64,000 nt of DNA, taken from an uncultured bacterium (GTDB taxonomy: Bacteria > Bdellovibrionota > Bacteriovoracia > Bacteriovoracales > CAZZBM01). The position numbers and the translations under genes were made by a program. How positions within the stretch are numbered: the stretch's first letter is position 1; each line of letters begins with the position of its first letter. Below, piece by piece: positions 13,826 to 50,473 of the stretch. Location: contig CAZZBM010000001.1 in assembly GCA_964652255.1 (NCBI GenBank), positions 604,489 to 668,488 on the forward strand, given 5' to 3'. The notes below the pieces were generated by a model that saw nothing but the letters and a program-made list of their open reading frames with translations, did not search any database and was not told the origin of the DNA.

Positions 13826-14050
13826 TTATTGCCTAGTATAGTCATCTTCATCATCTTCATTTTCTTCTTCTGTAGAATCAAATAAGTCTGATTCCCAATC
13901 GTAATCATCCTCATCGTCTTCGTCTAAAGAAGATTCATCATAGGATTCAAATTGATCTTCATCAAGTTCATTGTCATCCAAAGATGAAAAAGAATTTTTT
14001 TCCTGTGATTTAGGCTGAAGATTCTTAGATAGGACTACTTTCGGTGCCGA
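13826..14050 (-). CDS. acidic C-terminal extension (+1 frame relative to the H1-like ORF)
   Basis: About 74 stop-free codons in an AT-rich genome, strongly Asp/Glu-rich (SLDDNELDEDQFESYDESSLDEDDEDDYDWESDLFDSTEEENEDDEDDY). Its only in-frame start is a TTG at 14212 without a usable SD. Confidence 0.45.
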   Translation of the reverse strand, partial: SAPKVVLSKNLQPKSQEKNSFSSLDDNELDEDQFESYDESSLDEDDEDDYDWESDLFDSTEEENEDDEDDYTRQ

Positions 14051-14249
14051 TTTTTTTTTTGGCCGCCCTTCTCGGGGCAGCCTTTTTAGCAGCTTTTTTA
14101 GCAGGTCTTCTAGTGGCTTTTTTTCTTGTAGCCTTTTTTCTAGCAGGTCTTCTTGCTGTTGTTTTTTTAGCAACTTTTCTAGCAGGTCTTCTTGCTGTTG
14201 TTTTCTTAGCAACTCTCTTAGTCGCTTTTCTACGTGCTTTCTTTTTCAT
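14025..14249 (-). CDS. histone H1-like Lys/Ala/Arg/Pro-rich DNA-binding protein (frame A; probably continues into 13826-14050 after a shift)
   Basis: ATG at 14249 preceded by AAGGAAG about 9 nt upstream. KKTTARRPARK repeats. Frame terminates 8 codons after an A10 tract (14051-14060). Confidence 0.65.
   Translation of the reverse strand: MKKKARRKATKRVAKKTTARRPARKVAKKTTARRPARKKATRKKATRRPAKKAAKKAAPRRAAKKKIGTESSPI
14142..14219. repeat. 39-nt tandem repeat x2 (35/39 identical) inside the H1-like gene, with a degenerate third copy upstream (about 14100-14141)
   Basis: agcaggtcttcttgctgttgtttttttagcaacttttct followed by agcaggtcttcttgctgttgttttcttagcaactctctt. Encodes repeated KKTTARRPARK units. 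Confidence 0.85.
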
Positions 14250-14331
14250 GTGTTTAAACTTCCTTTTTTAATAATTTTTATTTTCGTACTTTTAGTATAT
14301 TCTTCTTATTTATTTTTTCAATAAGAATTTT

Positions 14332-37520: not shown

Positions 37521-38728
37521 AAGATTCTATTTTCTTTTCTTATTTAGAGCAAGAACAATTAAGACAAAAAGCAGGGCTTGAACTCATTGCTTCAGAAAAC
37601 TATGTTTCTGATGAAGTGCTCTTAGCCCAAGGTTCTCTTCTTACTAACAAGTATGCTGAAGGATATCCCCATCGTCGCTACTATCATGGTTGTGAACATA
37701 TTGATCAAATAGAAGATCTAGCTATCACAAGAGCTCTAGAGCTTTTTCAAGCTCAAGATTATGGAGTTAATGTTCAGGCACATTCAGGAACAACAGCAAA
37801 TTTAGCTGTTTATTTTTCTTGCTTAAAACCTGGAGATAAAATTTTAGCCATGGGTTTAAAAGAAGGAGGTCATCTTAGTCACGGTTCTTCTTTAAGTATT
37901 GCTAGTAGTGTTTTTCCTACTTCTTTCTATACACTTAATCCTCAAAATCATTTCTTAGATTATGATGCCATTAGAGAACAAGCTCTAAAAGAAAGACCAA
38001 GATTAATTATTGCTGGAGCTTCAGCTTATCCTAGAGTGATTGATTTTAAAAAATTTGCTTCTATTGCTCAAGAAATAGGAGCTTTTCTTTTAGCTGACAT
38101 TGCTCATGTTGCTGGACTTATTGCAAAAAAATTACACCCAAGTCCTTTTGGTTTAGCTGATTTTATTACAAGTACAACACATAAAACTTTAAGAGGTCCG
38201 CGAGGAGGACTTATTTTTTTTAAAAAAGATTTTGAAAAAAATCTTCAAAGAAGTGTTTTTCCTGGACTTCAAGGTGGACCACTCATGCATGCTATTGGAG
38301 CTAAAGCTGTTGCTTTTTATGAAGCCTTGCAACCTTCTTTTCAAGTTTATCAAGAACAGGTTTTAAAAAATGCTCAAGCTTTATCTCAACAACTTAAAGA
38401 TTTAGGAGTTCATTTGATTACTGAAGGAACTGATAATCATCTCATGCTTGTAGATGTAAAAAAAACTTATGATCTTACAGGAAAAGAAGCAGCTGATCTT
38501 TTACACCAATCTCATATCACGTGTAATCAAAACTCTATTCCTTTTGATTCTCTTTCTGCTTTAATCACTTCAGGAATTAGGCTTGGAACTCCAGCGCTGA
38601 CAACAAGAGGGCTGAAAGAAAATCATATGCAACAAATAGGATTTTGGATTCATGAAGTATTGTTGCATAAAAAATCTTTAGCAACTGAAGTTAAAGAATT
38701 TAGTTTAGGTTTTCCTCTTTATGTCTAG
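37517..38728 (+). CDS. glyA: serine hydroxymethyltransferase
   Basis: TSTTHKTLRGPRGG PLP-lysine motif. Confidence 0.95.
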   Translation: MKDSIFFSYLEQEQLRQKAGLELIASENYVSDEVLLAQGSLLTNKYAEGYPHRRYYHGCEHIDQIEDLAITRALELFQAQDYGVNVQAHSGTTANLAVYFSCLKPGDKILAMGLKEGGHLSHGSSLSIASSVFPTSFYTLNPQNHFLDYDAIREQALKERPRLIIAGASAYPRVIDFKKFASIAQEIGAFLLADIAHVAGLIAKKLHPSPFGLADFITSTTHKTLRGPRGGLIFFKKDFEKNLQRSVFPGLQGGPLMHAIGAKAVAFYEALQPSFQVYQEQVLKNAQALSQQLKDLGVHLITEGTDNHLMLVDVKKTYDLTGKEAADLLHQSHITCNQNSIPFDSLSALITSGIRLGTPALTTRGLKENHMQQIGFWIHEVLLHKKSLATEVKEFSLGFPLYV

Positions 38729-39104
38729 TAGCGCTAAACAAAGCCGAGAGCTTCTTCTTTTTTATGCTTATCAAGATTATTTTCAAAAACAATCATTAAA
38801 AGATTTTGATCTTTTTTTTAATCATTTTGCTAAAAAATCTTTTTCTAAAGATTTTTTAACTTCTTTTATTGCTCTCTATGATTTAAAAAAAGAAACTTTA
38901 AATCAAATTCTAGCTAAAGAAAATTTAGATAAGTTTAATCTTATAGATGCTCTTCTTATTAAACTCATGCTCTGTGAAAGACTTTATTTATTTACTAAAA
39001 GCCAAAATCTTCTTCATTATATTAACCTTTCAAAGGAATATAGTACTAAAGAAGCTTATAAAGTTATTCACGTGCTGATGGATAGATTTTTAAAAATTAC
39101 ATAA
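38721..39104 (+). CDS. nusB: NusB-like antitermination factor (divergent)
   Basis: 127 aa. SRELLLFYAYQ N-terminus and KVIHVLMDRF C-terminus parallel the NusB patterns (AREx-ALQ-LYQ; FVNGVLDK). Confidence 0.45.
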   Translation: MSSSAKQSRELLLFYAYQDYFQKQSLKDFDLFFNHFAKKSFSKDFLTSFIALYDLKKETLNQILAKENLDKFNLIDALLIKLMLCERLYLFTKSQNLLHYINLSKEYSTKEAYKVIHVLMDRFLKIT

Positions 39105-39110
39105 AAATTC

Positions 39111-39140
39111 TTGACATAAAAAAATAAAAAAACATAGTTT
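39111..39140 (+). promoter_or_regulatory. candidate sigma70-type promoter for the small-ORF array
   Basis: Perfect TTGACA (39111-39116), 18-nt spacer, TAGTTT (39135-39140). About 20 nt upstream of the first small ORF's SD. Confidence 0.3.
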
Positions 39141-39159
39141 TATAAGGAGAATATTTAAT

Positions 39160-39321
39160 ATGATTTTTTTATTATCAATGAATTTATTGGCAACAAAACC
39201 ACCAGGTCCAGCTGATAATCCAGATGGTGATTGGAATGAGTTTAAAAATGAACAAGAAGCTTTGATAGCTGTAGGAGAGAAAGAACAGAAGGAAGAAAAC
39301 GAAATAAGAAATAAAAAATAA
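39160..39321 (+). CDS. small acidic mini-protein 1 (53 aa): MIFLLSMNLLATKPPGPADNPDGDWNEFKNEQEALIAVGEKEQKEENEIRNKK
   Basis: Hand translation. ATG lies 9 nt after AAGGAGA (39144-39150). Below the ORF-track length cutoff. Confidence 0.55.
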   Translation: MIFLLSMNLLATKPPGPADNPDGDWNEFKNEQEALIAVGEKEQKEENEIRNKK

Positions 39322-39336
39322 AAAGGAGGTGAAGTG

Positions 39337-39432
39337 ATGTTGAATTTAATTTTTTTACAATGTATCCCGGGTGATCATTGGGATGAGTATGGAGATGATG
39401 GAGATGATGGAGATGATGGAGATGATGCATAG
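39337..39432 (+). CDS. small acidic mini-protein 2 (31 aa): MLNLIFLQCIPGDHWDEYGDDGDDGDDGDDA
   Basis: Hand translation. ATG lies 7 nt after GGAGG (39325-39329). The SD sits just after the stop of ORF1. Confidence 0.55.
   Translation: MLNLIFLQCIPGDHWDEYGDDGDDGDDGDDA
39391..39426. repeat. perfect 9-nt tandem repeat (ggagatgat)x4 encoding (GDD)4
   Basis: Read directly from the sequence, within small ORF 2. Confidence 0.95.
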
Positions 39433-39461
39433 AAAATCTTTTTAAATAGTAGGAAATTTTT

Positions 39462-39563
39462 ATGTTAAATTTTTTTTTAATGATGTCTTTACTAAGTCTT
39501 GATTTTAAACTATTTCAGGAAGAAGATGATCTATCAGTGATGGAAGATGTTATAATAGGGTAA
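39462..39563 (+). CDS. small acidic mini-protein 3 (33 aa): MLNFFLMMSLLSLDFKLFQEEDDLSVMEDVIIG
   Basis: Hand translation. Weak SD: AGGA (39451-39454) 7 nt before the ATG. Confidence 0.4.
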   Translation: MLNFFLMMSLLSLDFKLFQEEDDLSVMEDVIIG

Positions 39564-39585
39564 TAAAAATAAAAGGAGTAAAAAT

Positions 39586-39750
39586 ATGTTGATATCTATT
39601 TTAATTAATTATTTAATGGCAATACCTGGTGGTCCAGATGATTATGATTTTGATCCGCAGGATACAGATGGGCATAGATTGTGTCCAGGTGGTCCAGATG
39701 ATAGAGGAGATGATGGTTTAGGAAATGGTCCTGGTAATACAGGAGTATAA
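39586..39750 (+). CDS. small acidic mini-protein 4 (54 aa): MLISILINYLMAIPGGPDDYDFDPQDTDGHRLCPGGPDDRGDDGLGNGPGNTGV
   Basis: Hand translation. AAGGAG (39573-39578) lies 7 nt before the ATG. Internal 15-nt perfect direct repeat ggtggtccagatgat at 39628 and 39688. Confidence 0.55.
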   Translation: MLISILINYLMAIPGGPDDYDFDPQDTDGHRLCPGGPDDRGDDGLGNGPGNTGV

Positions 39751-39760
39751 TAAAAGCGTG

Positions 39761-39795
39761 TTTTTTGGTTGAGTTTTTTAAGCTTGACCAAAAAA
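39761..39795. other. 13-bp stem-loop between small ORFs 4 and 5 (not terminator-shaped)
   Basis: ttttttggttgag (39761-39773) pairs with cttgaccaaaaaa (39783-39795) including two G-U pairs; 9-nt loop. The U-tract is 5' and the A-tract 3' on both strands. Confidence 0.5.
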
Positions 39796-39811
39796 TTTAA
39801 AAAGGTAAAAA

Positions 39812-40027
39812 ATGTTTGTTATATTGTTTTTAATGGCACAAGAAAGTCAACTTAGTGATACTGAAGGAGTGAAAGATTCTTTTGGTAGATTGATATTTTA
39901 TGGGGAAAATGGATCAGTATATGTGAAGGATCCAGATGATGAAAAAGGTACTGTTTATCCTCTTTTGGTTCCTGTAGATTATCATCCTAATAACGATATT
40001 GATTTTAAGGAAGAATTTTATTTTTAA
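39812..40027 (+). CDS. small acidic mini-protein 5 (71 aa)
   Basis: ORF track entry MFVILFLMAQESQLSD...KDPDDEKG...FKEEFYF. Same short hydrophobic N-terminus as ORFs 1-4; weak SD (AAAGGT). Confidence 0.5.
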   Translation: MFVILFLMAQESQLSDTEGVKDSFGRLIFYGENGSVYVKDPDDEKGTVYPLLVPVDYHPNNDIDFKEEFYF

Positions 40028-40191
40028 AAAAATTAAGATTAAGATTGATTTGAAAAAAGTCATAGTAAGATTTTAATAACCTTATTATTTTTTTATTAAA
40101 TCTAATAGTAATTATGTTAGATTTGAGATAGTAGAACTTGTAGATAAGTCACTAAATAAAATGACTAGGTAAAAATAAAAAAACTCTATGA

Positions 40192-41841
40192 CTAGAGATT
40201 AAATAACAACTTTTCTAAATCCATTTCAAAATTATTATGTATAAAGAGAGAAGGAACATGAGGAATATATTTAAATTCTTCTTTTTCTTGTAAGATTCTT
40301 TGCTCAGTTTCAGGGGAAGTTAAACAAGATTGAGTGTCTTTTAAAGAAAGTTTTTTTAAAAGTACATCCTCTTTTTCTTTAACAAGAGTAGGATCTTGAA
40401 AGAATTTGAGAACAGTTTCAGGAAAACAAGTTGTTATCTTTGAAAGATAAAGCTCTTGGCGATGAAGATTTTTAAAACTAATACTTTTATGCTTTTTTTT
40501 GAGTTTTGGATAAATTTCTTGAAAGAAAAATGGACACTGAGGACAATTAAAATCATAAAAGATCACTAAATCTTCTTTAAAATCACCTTGTAAGGTGATT
40601 GGTTTTTCTAAGTAAAGATCAAGAGGAGAAGAACCTAAGGCTTCATTTTTGACTTCTTCGTAAAGTTCATTTCTTTTTAAAGAAGTTACATAGTTTTCAG
40701 CTTGATGATAAGCTTCATTAGGTAAACTATATTGCTTCATAATCTCTCGAACTTCTTTTTCTGTTACTTGAAAAGTAGCTGAAGCTAGATAAGAATCTAA
40801 GGTTTTTTTTTCTTTTTTCTCTAAGTATTTTTGAGTTACAAGTTTAAAGAGTTCTTGTCTTAAAGATTTATAAACATCAAAATCAAAAGCATAGAAAAAA
40901 TACTGAAATTTTTTTAAATCTTTTTTTGATATTTTTAAGTCTTTATAAGAAGCTAAGAATTCTGAATTTTGTTGATAAATAAATCTAGGTTTTGAAAGAT
41001 AATCTTCAATTCTTTCTCCTAAGTCATAGATAGAGCCTAAATAAAGCTCATCATCGATAAAAATAGTAGGAGTTGTAAAAACTTTTAAAGCTCTTGTTTG
41101 AGCAATGAGATTTTTTAATTCTTGTTGTTTTTCTTTAAAACAAAGATTTTCATTAATATTGAATTTTTTAGCTAAAGCTTCAACAAAAATTTTTGGATTA
41201 GAAATTTGTTGTTGATTTTTAAAAACCTCTTCCTGAAATTCAAAATAACGATTTTTATCCTTGGCGCATAAGTGCAAGAGTTCAATAGGATGAAGTTGTT
41301 CATAAAAATAAGCACTTTGGGTTTGAAGAGTGATTTTGGAACCAAATCTTTTCTCTAAAAGAGGAAGCTCTGTTTTGATAAAATTTCCACAATGACCACA
41401 AGAATAATCTAAAAAAATAGTTACTTTTAAAGATCCAGAACCCTTGTTTTGATTTTTAATAAAAGAAAGATCTTTCTTTAGAGTTAAAGGAGGGTGCTTG
41501 TAAAAAATAACAGGATTTTTTCTAAAAAGTGTATTAAAATAAGCCTGAATAGCTAATTGTCTTTTACTAGGAGCTTCCTCTGTTTGAGCTGGAAAACGAT
41601 TTAAAAACTTCTCTTGCCCCCCTTCTGTGCTAATAATAAGACGTTCTATCTCATGAAGAAGTAACCTTTCTTTTTGCAACTCAGCTTCAATCTTTTTTTT
41701 AAGATAATCTTCTTGAAAAGAATAAAGATCCTTCCAAGTGAGAGTCAAATCACTTTGTTTTAATAAAAGTGAATCCTGAGGTTTATGTTCATGAACAATA
41801 ATTTTTTGAGCACAAGATATTAACAATAATAACAAAATCAT
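40192..41841 (-). CDS. lipoprotein with two DsbA/thioredoxin-like modules (internally duplicated)
   Basis: MILLLLLISC lipobox. Two CxxC sites (YSCGHCGNF and FNCPQCPFF), each preceded by a helical chaperone-like segment. ATGA overlap with the S8 gene. Confidence 0.65.
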   Translation of the reverse strand: MILLLLLISCAQKIIVHEHKPQDSLLLKQSDLTLTWKDLYSFQEDYLKKKIEAELQKERLLLHEIERLIISTEGGQEKFLNRFPAQTEEAPSKRQLAIQAYFNTLFRKNPVIFYKHPPLTLKKDLSFIKNQNKGSGSLKVTIFLDYSCGHCGNFIKTELPLLEKRFGSKITLQTQSAYFYEQLHPIELLHLCAKDKNRYFEFQEEVFKNQQQISNPKIFVEALAKKFNINENLCFKEKQQELKNLIAQTRALKVFTTPTIFIDDELYLGSIYDLGERIEDYLSKPRFIYQQNSEFLASYKDLKISKKDLKKFQYFFYAFDFDVYKSLRQELFKLVTQKYLEKKEKKTLDSYLASATFQVTEKEVREIMKQYSLPNEAYHQAENYVTSLKRNELYEEVKNEALGSSPLDLYLEKPITLQGDFKEDLVIFYDFNCPQCPFFFQEIYPKLKKKHKSISFKNLHRQELYLSKITTCFPETVLKFFQDPTLVKEKEDVLLKKLSLKDTQSCLTSPETEQRILQEKEEFKYIPHVPSLFIHNNFEMDLEKLLFNL

Positions 41842-50344: not shown

Positions 50345-50473
50345 ATGTACTTAATCTTATTTTTAATCTTGAGTTGCACTAAGTCAAAACCAGCAAGCTA
50401 TTCCCCTTCTTTTAACTCAGATCAAAAAAAAGACGATAACTGCAAAATAGAAGAACCATGCTCTATAGAGTAG
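50345..50473 (+). CDS. candidate 42-aa mini-lipoprotein: MYLILFLILSCTKSKPASYSPSFNSDQKKDDNCKIEEPCSIE
   Basis: Hand translation. ILSC lipobox like other lipoproteins in the window. Lies between two minus-strand tRNAs; no clear SD. Confidence 0.35.
   Translation: MYLILFLILSCTKSKPASYSPSFNSDQKKDDNCKIEEPCSIE

Follow-up and report, generated by a model that had tools for sequence, protein, structure and literature searches.

Small bacterial peptides that are exported by the Sec pathway and cut by signal peptidase I (SPase I), such as the Phr pro-peptides of Bacillus, have a hydrophobic N-terminus that ends in a small residue (L-x-A/S/C), a hydrophilic remainder and a ribosome-binding site of their own. 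We describe here a tandem array of five small open reading frames (ORF1 to ORF5) of similar layout in DNA of an uncultured bacterium of the Bacteriovoracales (contig CAZZBM010000001.1, positions 604,489 to 668,488); this whole stretch of 64,000 nucleotides (nt) is referred to as the window. The array fills the gap between an operon that runs from fab genes through glyA to a nusB-like gene and another that carries S8-protease and DsbA-like genes. Our preferred reading, to which we assign a probability of about one half, is that the gap holds a lineage-specific cluster of five translated small-protein genes, each encoding a minimal leader maintained by selection and a fast-evolving acidic tail, and that the products are probably exported.

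Compared with the Phr type, the array has no charged n-region, its leaders are 9-13 residues long as against about 20-25, no partner receptor or regulator gene is found among nearby annotated genes, and the leader is better conserved than the mature part. The lineage's own lipoprotein signals are closer in length (9-11 residues), are rich in Leu, Ile and Phe, and in some cases have neither Lys nor Arg; four of the five mini-proteins (ORF1, ORF3, ORF4 and ORF5), however, have no Cys after the hydrophobic run, and the F-L-Q-C of ORF2, with Gln at -1, departs from the lipobox [LVI][ASTVI][GAS]C. Conotoxin superfamilies and the precursors of ribosomally synthesized and post-translationally modified peptides (RiPPs) also come in tandem copies and combine a conserved N-terminal part with a variable remainder, as does the array in the two species compared, where the ratio of non-synonymous to synonymous substitution (omega, or dN/dS) is about 0.1 at the N-terminus and about 1 downstream, but the array lacks their cysteine frameworks and their processing or modification genes, and its leader is far shorter and purely hydrophobic. 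The magnetosome protein Mms6 can be compared by architecture alone: it too joins a hydrophobic N-terminal part to a strongly acidic, potentially cation-binding C-terminal part, but the array has no sequence similarity to it, no magnetosome context and no Leu-Gly repeat. What is new in the array is its unusually short leader and its orphan status, not a new kind of system.

All five ORFs are on the plus strand, at the positions and with the lengths of the original prediction, which was made from the letters of the window (53, 31, 33, 54 and 71 amino acids, aa). ORF1 (39160-39321) encodes MIFLLSMNLLA followed by TKPPGPADNPDGDW..., and is preceded by a match to the Shine-Dalgarno sequence, AAGGAGA, at 39144-39150. 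ORF2 (39337-39432; 31 aa from its ATG, with a GTG at 39334 as an alternative start) encodes MLNLIFLQC followed by IPGDHWDEY(GDD)4A, and has a GGAGG at 39325-39329. ORF3 (39462-39563), which reads MLNFFLMMSLLS followed by LDFKLFQEEDDLSVMEDVIIG, has only a weak AGGA site upstream. ORF4 (39586-39750) joins MLISILINYLMA to IPGGPDDYDFDPQDTDGHRLCPGGPDDRGDDGLGNGPGNTGV behind an AAGGAG at 39573-39578, and ORF5 (39812-40027) joins MFVILFLMA to QESQ...PLLVPVDYHPNNDIDFKEEFYF. The three strong sites, all foreseen in the original prediction, stand 7-10 nt before their ATGs. Spacers of 15, 29 and 22 nt separate ORF1 to ORF4, every ORF ends in TAA or TAG, and the net charges of the tails are -4, -11, -6, -8 and -8 from ORF1 to ORF5. 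Two repeats noticed earlier were found again on analysis: the (GDD)4 of ORF2 is encoded by a 9-nt tandem repeat (ATGGAGATG, 4.3 copies, 39389-39427, plus strand), and the GGPDD motifs of ORF4 by two perfect copies of the 15-nt direct repeat GGTGGTCCAGATGAT, 60 nt apart (39628-39642 and 39688-39702, plus strand). ORF1 and ORF2 lie in one frame, with a single TAA and four sense codons between them (39319-39339), the codons holding the GGAGG of ORF2; this layout may be due to coupled translation, or to a nonsense mutation that cut one ancestral ORF in two.

Codon usage is like that of genes in ORF1, ORF2, ORF4 and ORF5 and marginal in ORF3. On a codon log-odds score trained on the long ORFs of the window they reach 0.27, 0.50, 0.21, 0.43 and 0.34, compared with 0.32 +/- 0.11 for 50-codon pieces of real genes and -0.22 +/- 0.21 for spurious small ORFs nested within genes. 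Against shuffles of their own nucleotides the score is significant for ORF1 (p = 0.002), ORF2 (p < 0.001), ORF4 and ORF5 (all four p <= 0.002), and marginal for ORF3 (p = 0.06, composition-matched shuffles). A strong Shine-Dalgarno site precedes three of the five, as against about 7 of 62 long genes, an enrichment that is limited by the frequency of the bare motif within coding sequence and for which the upstream sequences were judged by eye. None of the N-termini has a charged residue at positions 2-9, where their mean Kyte-Doolittle values are 1.6-3.2 and their hydrophobicity falls within the top 14 of 62 long ORFs; the combination of hydrophobic N-terminus and acidic tail occurred in none of 57 spurious small ORFs starting with ATG. 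ORF1, ORF3, ORF4 and ORF5 were already present as called genes in the public protein collection, whose gene caller missed ORF2 alone, contrary to the expectation that a length-filtered annotation would lose four of the five.

Comparison with a close relative shows which parts of the array are kept. The original prediction had proposed a search for homologues with conserved frames, and an exhaustive HMMER search of 1.84 billion representative proteins with ORF5 gave one true homologue, P0129 (69 aa, 49% identity, E = 3.7e-9), aligned from residue 1 to the end. Two further matches, short repeat motifs in large proteins, fall on the least conserved part of ORF5, and for this reason we take them to be chance. 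P0129 is encoded on L009, an 1132-bp Logan contig of run SRR7119518, on which the C-terminus of the DsbA-like protein is 91% identical to that of the window (dS 0.38, dN/dS 0.12); the contig comes from a close relative. Other searches added nothing: a word-indexed search with ORF5 returned only the window's own sequence, the same search with the DsbA-like neighbour returned only itself (a weak negative, as its candidate list was saturated), and neither a metagenome scan with the nusB-like alignment nor metagenome and viral scans with the concatenated peptides gave a match.

Order and orientation on L009 are those of the window, running from the end of ORF3 through ORF4, a hairpin and ORF5 to the convergent DsbA-like gene. 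The last six codons and TAA of ORF3 are kept (EDVIAG* compared with EDVIIG*). The ORF4 orthologue (53 aa, 70% identity) retains its Shine-Dalgarno sequence (AAAGGAG), ATG and stop, and the start and stop codons of ORF5 are likewise kept. Each ORF has undergone only in-frame change in length, of 3 nt in ORF4 and 6 nt in ORF5, while six of the seven spacer indels (2, 14, 2, 1, 3, 40 and 8 nt) are not in-frame; when the differences were placed at random in simulation, the frame survived in 2% of runs for ORF5 and in 23% for ORF4.

Within the frames, constraint is a mosaic whose pattern is alike in ORF4 and ORF5. For the hydrophobic N-terminus (11-12 codons) omega is 0.11 in ORF4 and 0.16 in ORF5, for the middle 1.44 and 0.92, and for the C-terminal segment 0.43 in both, figures that come from small site counts and a single species pair. 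Purifying selection is thus seen at the N-terminus, with moderate conservation at the C-terminal end and an omega of about 1 in the middles. In the N-terminus of ORF4, 3.5 of 6 synonymous sites have changed and 3.5 of 30 non-synonymous ones, with the replacements S>A, I>M and L>M; V>F completes the set for ORF4 and ORF5 together. Because omega is low and synonymous changes are present, the constraint appears to act on the peptide and not merely on the RNA, which supports the N-terminus as a selected protein module. The conserved C-terminal segments read PGGPDDxGDDGxGxGPGNxGV in ORF4, where the second copy of GGPDD is conserved and the first is lost in the relative, and PLLxPVDYHPxNDxxFxEEFxF in ORF5. 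We conclude that the cluster consists of real orphan small-protein genes restricted to this lineage. The comparison of the two sequences gives good support to the view that selection has kept ORF4 and ORF5 protein-coding; ORF1 and ORF2 are probably genes, and ORF3 is an uncertain one, the weakest candidate of the five.

Several other ways of reading the letters were rejected. The antisense His-rich ORF pointed out earlier is present (62 aa, 39242-39430), but it has a codon score of 0.09 and is the mirror image of the GDD repeat. An alternative genetic code is contradicted by TGA, which is the stop codon of 17 of the 53 long ORFs in the window, the stops of the array being TAA or TAG throughout. 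A single decayed long gene does not fit the many stops found by direct reading in frame 0 between ORF2 and ORF4, nor the conservation of the layout in L009. For ORF5, one gene caller starts at Met8 (64 aa), but in P0129 conservation at the protein level takes in the first 11 codons, and in both species an AAGG lies 6-7 nt before the first ATG.

We suggest that the N-termini are minimal export signals, which their form makes plausible. They are runs of 9-13 uncharged hydrophobic residues ending L-x-(A/S/C), with Leu at -3 in all five (LLA, LQC, LLS, LMA, LMA) and A, C, S, A and A at -1. A canonical Sec signal has small residues at both positions, is usually 15 or more residues long in total, and has an h-region of about 7-15 hydrophobic residues, a range within which the runs of all five fall. 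The original prediction had likened them to ultra-short lipoprotein signals, and in length and composition they do match. Signals of lipoproteins are typically about 15-25 residues long. Those of the window have 9-11 residues before the Cys (MILLLLLIS|C, MKKLLFFLLS|C, MKFFLLFLIS|C and MTYLLFLILVS|C), with lipoboxes LISC, LLSC or LVSC, and some, such as MILLLLLISC and MTYLLFLILVSC, have neither Lys nor Arg. Short-signal lipoproteins of the window are at 41841 (minus), 42836 (minus), 22103 (plus), 47796 (plus) and 31757 (minus). The short form of the DsbA-like signal is supported by the overlap of its start with the S8 stop by 4 nt. In L010, a syntenic contig from a more distant relative, the orthologous signals are equally short (MKYLFIFFIT|C, MKFLLYFLLFS|C and MKLFILFLISS|C; positions 14325, 15272 and 972, all minus strand), and because the window and L010 share signals of 9-11 residues, very short export leaders can be called a trait of the lineage.

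In the mechanism that we propose, each product would consist of two modules. The first is the N-terminus of 9-13 residues, which purifying selection maintains and which most likely serves as a minimal signal for Sec-type export or for targeting to the membrane; the second is the acidic tail, in which Gly, Pro and Asp abound in ORF1, ORF2 and ORF4 and which evolves near-neutrally or faster, with a moderately conserved C-terminal motif in ORF4 and ORF5. The mature products would be polyanionic peptides of 20-60 residues in the periplasm or at the surface, that of ORF5 forming a small beta-rich domain. Such rapid turnover would suit proteins that interact with a host or the environment better than housekeeping ones. 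Co-transcription, export, the cleavage site, disorder and the biological role are matters that we infer. A bolder version, which we advance tentatively, is that this lineage exports proteins with signals of about 9-12 uncharged residues, much shorter than is usual, and that the array is a new and rapidly diversifying family of exported polyanionic peptides whose leader is recognised, or, in a variant, released as a signalling peptide.

A number of points weigh against our preferred reading. No positively charged n-region is present in any of the five ORFs or in the two L009 orthologues (positions 2-9), and 9-13 residues are fewer than in a typical SPase I signal, the clear SPase I-type signals of the window having about 18-23. 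Whole-gene dN/dS is 0.59 for ORF4 and 0.64 for ORF5, apparently not significantly below 1 by raw counts, and constraint at the level of nucleotides could account for part of the near-identity seen over the first 33 nt of ORF5. The comparison rests on one relative, which covers ORF4, ORF5 and six codons of ORF3, so that comparative support is absent for ORF1 to ORF3; ORF3, moreover, combines weak codon statistics with the lack of a strong Shine-Dalgarno site. Any function of the array must be dispensable or very young, given its absence from syntenic relatives at about 64% GlyA identity. Finally, the explanation as a whole, export and expression included, is one read from DNA sequence.

Real small proteins that are not exported are the alternative that survives best, and we consider it rather unlikely. 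The N-terminus would here be an in-plane or partial membrane anchor, or an interaction motif, and the tail would act on the cytoplasmic side, for instance as a regulator or a cation buffer. In favour of this, the N-terminus has no n-region charge, is only 9-13 residues long, and is conserved in sequence and not only in hydrophobicity, which is unusual for ordinary signal peptides. A run of 9-13 residues is nevertheless too short to span the bilayer, the positive-inside rule would place acidic tails outside, and lipoproteins of the same organism have leaders that are equally short.

It is improbable, in our view, that the ORFs are non-functional or barely functional, being either young de novo ORFs or the debris of a gene for a secreted protein that decayed in a slot which is prone to recombination and lies between convergent operons. 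The slot does vary, holding an ORF of 174-190 aa in L010 and in a second contig, L008, and one of 75 aa in a third, L012. The DNA identity of ORF5 between the window and L009 (65%) is below that of the adjoining spacers (71-73%), and the middles of ORF4 and ORF5, the shared frame of ORF1 and ORF2 with its one stop, and the weak statistics of ORF3 all point the same way. Yet frames, starts, stops and Shine-Dalgarno sequences have been kept over a dS of about 0.3-0.4 with in-frame indels only, the N-terminal omega is about 0.1, and a compact genome (92.5% coding) is expected to delete debris. Each ORF also has its own start context, which, with the many stops in frame 0 between ORF2 and ORF4, argues against descent from a single decayed reading frame.

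A further alternative, to which we give very little weight, is that the tail is a disposable carrier and that activity resides in the hydrophobic N-terminal peptide, a pheromone-like signal freed by signal-peptide processing. Enterococcal pheromones, which are cut from lipoprotein signals by a protease of the RseP family, and the streptococcal short hydrophobic peptides (SHP) are analogues. That the N-terminus is the most conserved part and the tails are near-neutral would suit this idea, and the ORF at 1517-2968 does contain HELGH, the motif of an RseP-type site-2 protease, but the enzyme is near-universal. Conservation also extends to the C-terminal motifs of ORF4 and ORF5 (omega 0.43), the nearby annotated genes include no cognate receptor or regulator, and analogy is the sole basis of the proposal.

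Least likely of all are the two identities offered in the original prediction, bacteriocin or RiPP precursors and dedicated calcium-binding peptides of thrombospondin-type-3 or EF-hand type, which are favoured by the Asp/Gly-rich tails, the adjoining genes for a subtilisin-like S8 protease and a double-thioredoxin DsbA-like lipoprotein, and a conserved leader before a variable core, as in RiPP and toxin precursor families (omega 0.11-0.16 and then 0.9-1.4 in ORF4 and ORF5, in two species only). Among the annotated neighbours within about 6-7 kb on either side, however, there is no modifying enzyme, C39 or ABC transporter, or immunity gene; these neighbours are housekeeping genes (fabHDGF, glyA, and those for DksA, MltG, RuvX, Rho and PrfA), and the S8 protease and DsbA-like genes are also conserved in relatives that lack the array. 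No RiPP precursor family of NCBIfam was matched and there is no double-glycine leader motif, which leaves the leader/core pattern as the only feature that fits. As for the DxDxDG-like calcium loops, neither TSP_3 (PF02412) nor EF-hand was matched at E <= 1, and the loop itself is not kept: DTDGHRLCP of ORF4 is DTGGHKLVP in the L009 orthologue, so that DTDG has become DTGG and the only Cys of ORF4 has become Val, and the first GGPDD copy is the one that is lost.

The orphan status of the peptides was borne out in wider searches. Nothing rose above threshold in Pfam, NCBIfam, PHROGs or the sequences of the PDB, in agreement with the view that no described family has this architecture, and ORF1 to ORF4 had no Pfam match at all at E <= 1. 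The full transmembrane helix of a type I toxin (about 18-20 hydrophobic residues in a peptide of fewer than 60 aa) is not seen either; the runs are of 9-13 residues and the remainder is acidic. For ORF5, a weak likeness to PBCV_basic_adap (PF08789; 19.7 bits, E = 9e-4, below the gathering threshold of 20.4) was rejected. A beta-hairpin-like stretch, GRLIFYGENGSVYVKDPDDE, matches 24 of 38 profile positions, but it is acidic and not basic, and it corresponds to the least conserved part of the orthologue (GREIVSNDENQLCVSYNDGG in P0129). An AlphaFold2 model of ORF5 from the single sequence has an N-terminal helix (residues 5-14) and five short strands, with a mean confidence (pLDDT) of 62.8, and predicts a small beta-rich core; a Foldseek search of the PDB with this model gave a best E of 1.3, which is not usable.

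The original prediction described the five proteins as paralogous. Their shared architecture is real, but paralogy is not significant at the protein level: pairwise BLAST among the five gave no significant match, and protein shuffle tests reached p values of about 0.03-0.05 for two pairs only, ORF2/ORF4 and ORF1/ORF4. In DNA, the 5' regions, comprising the Shine-Dalgarno sequence and first codons, are alike for ORF2/ORF4, ORF1/ORF4, ORF3/ORF5 and ORF4/ORF5 (z = 3.2-4.8, the highest, 4.8, for ORF2/ORF4), although the null, in which AT-rich sequence was subjected to mononucleotide shuffling, is lenient. It is plausible that all five share a common ancestor.

Transcription of the array may be organised around two elements. 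Just 3' of the nusB-like stop lies a promoter-like site (39111-39138, plus strand; TTGACA, 16 nt, CATAGT; 10 of 12 consensus matches), its TTGACA being the one predicted ahead of the array, although promoter-like matches are not enriched in the region (10 found, 10.9 expected). A similar site with TTGACC before ORF5 is not conserved in L009. Between ORF4 and ORF5 is a 17-bp hairpin (39760-39796, plus strand; -16 kcal/mol, z = -3.9), whose counterpart in L009 (218-248; -21.5 kcal/mol, z = -4.7) has changes in its arms that keep the pairing, and in L009 only it is followed by a U-run. These features suggest that the hairpin is a terminator or attenuator closing the transcription unit of ORF1 to ORF4. 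This unit would probably run from the promoter-like TTGACA to the conserved hairpin, with ORF5 beyond it.

The distribution of the array is narrow. Homologues of GlyA at 64-65% identity led to the contigs L008, L010 (69 kb, activated sludge) and L012 to L019, of which L010 is fully syntenic with the window from L32 through TatC. The relatives nearest by GlyA at 55-57% identity include metagenome-assembled genomes of Bacteriovoracaceae and Oligoflexia as well as Erysipelotrichia, and a scan of genome contigs with GlyA gave only distant matches at 48-53%, none of them syntenic. The acidic array was not found in the slot between the nusB-like and DsbA-like genes of the syntenic relatives. The slot instead holds, in L010 (11793-12317) and L008 (1909-2481), a plus-strand ORF of 174-190 aa that belongs to no family, truncated to 75 aa in L012 (5613-5840). 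Since other small genes occupy the slot in distant syntenic relatives, the array is confined to the window's organism and the close relative behind L009. The slot itself varies in content, which suggests that it is a hot spot, flanked by convergent operons, where genes are gained and decay.

The same three sister-clade contigs keep a minus-strand gene of 67-70 aa in the slot, just downstream of the DsbA-like gene (L010 12341-12544, L012 6020-6232, L008 2512-2817). Its product reads MIFFI(I/V)TFIFA-DQIKEN...KKDSLE, or MMFFIITFIFA-NPVEED... in L008, and thus has the architecture of the array proteins, a point in favour of our preferred reading: a tail that is acidic or polar follows eleven hydrophobic residues, the last of them Ala, and the ends are conserved while the middle is variable. 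It is on the strand opposite to the array, and sequence similarity is not obvious on inspection.

If the N-termini are truly export signals, this lineage would set a lower length limit for Sec or lipoprotein signal peptides, one to which standard predictors and annotation pipelines are not tuned. The array would then be a compact natural test set, with five leaders beside lipoproteins that have signals of 9-11 residues. The array also shows a compact bacterium of small genome in which fast-evolving small-protein genes fill the largest "non-coding" gap, an observation relevant to the way in which reduced genomes retain a few lineage-specific genes that may serve in interactions. Apart from this, it is a cluster of orphan small-protein genes shared by two uncultured bacteria that are closely related, and its importance is local more than general.

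The window is a segment of a compact bacterial genome with about 30% GC and the standard genetic code, its 92.5% coding share being counted on ORFs of at least 100 aa. Exact-sequence look-up traces its proteins to one NCBI contig (745,960 bp) and to Logan contigs from run SRR12404947, two of which are 100% identical to the window and so offer no variation to analyse. The Logan assembly of this run is broken over ORF1 to ORF3, where contigs end at 39187 and resume at 39553; the GDD repeat or low complexity could be the cause.

Upstream of the array the gene order is L32, fabH, fabD, fabG, acpP, fabF, glyA and the nusB-like gene. The last of these (38721-39104, plus strand) is very divergent, with a score against TIGR01951 of 28 bits where the cut-off is 88; its overlap with the glyA stop is 8 nt, and its C-terminal motif, LMLCERLxxFTKSQNLLHY, is invariant in three aligned members of the clade. 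The 1087 nt from there to the DsbA-like gene are the largest stretch of the window without an ORF of at least 100 aa. Beyond them lies the convergent minus-strand operon, which holds, in the order of the window's coordinates, the genes for the double-thioredoxin DsbA-like lipoprotein (40192-41841), the S8 subtilase lipoprotein, DksA, MltG and RuvX; those for Rho and PrfA come next, on the plus strand.

Rfam finds four tRNAs in the whole window and nothing else, with none in the array region. Between tRNA-Asp and tRNA-Leu is a 42-aa ORF (50345-50473, plus strand; MYLILFLILSC/TKSKPASYSPSFNSDQKKDDNCKIEEPCSIE) that combines a perfect short lipoprotein leader with a low codon score (-0.18). Elsewhere, a 128-aa ORF (13826-14212, minus strand) of repeated LLEKLLKKQQQEDLLEK units encodes a low-complexity protein, and tblastn matches suggest a very acidic stretch rich in Asp and Glu (DESSLDEDDEDDYD) in the same region.

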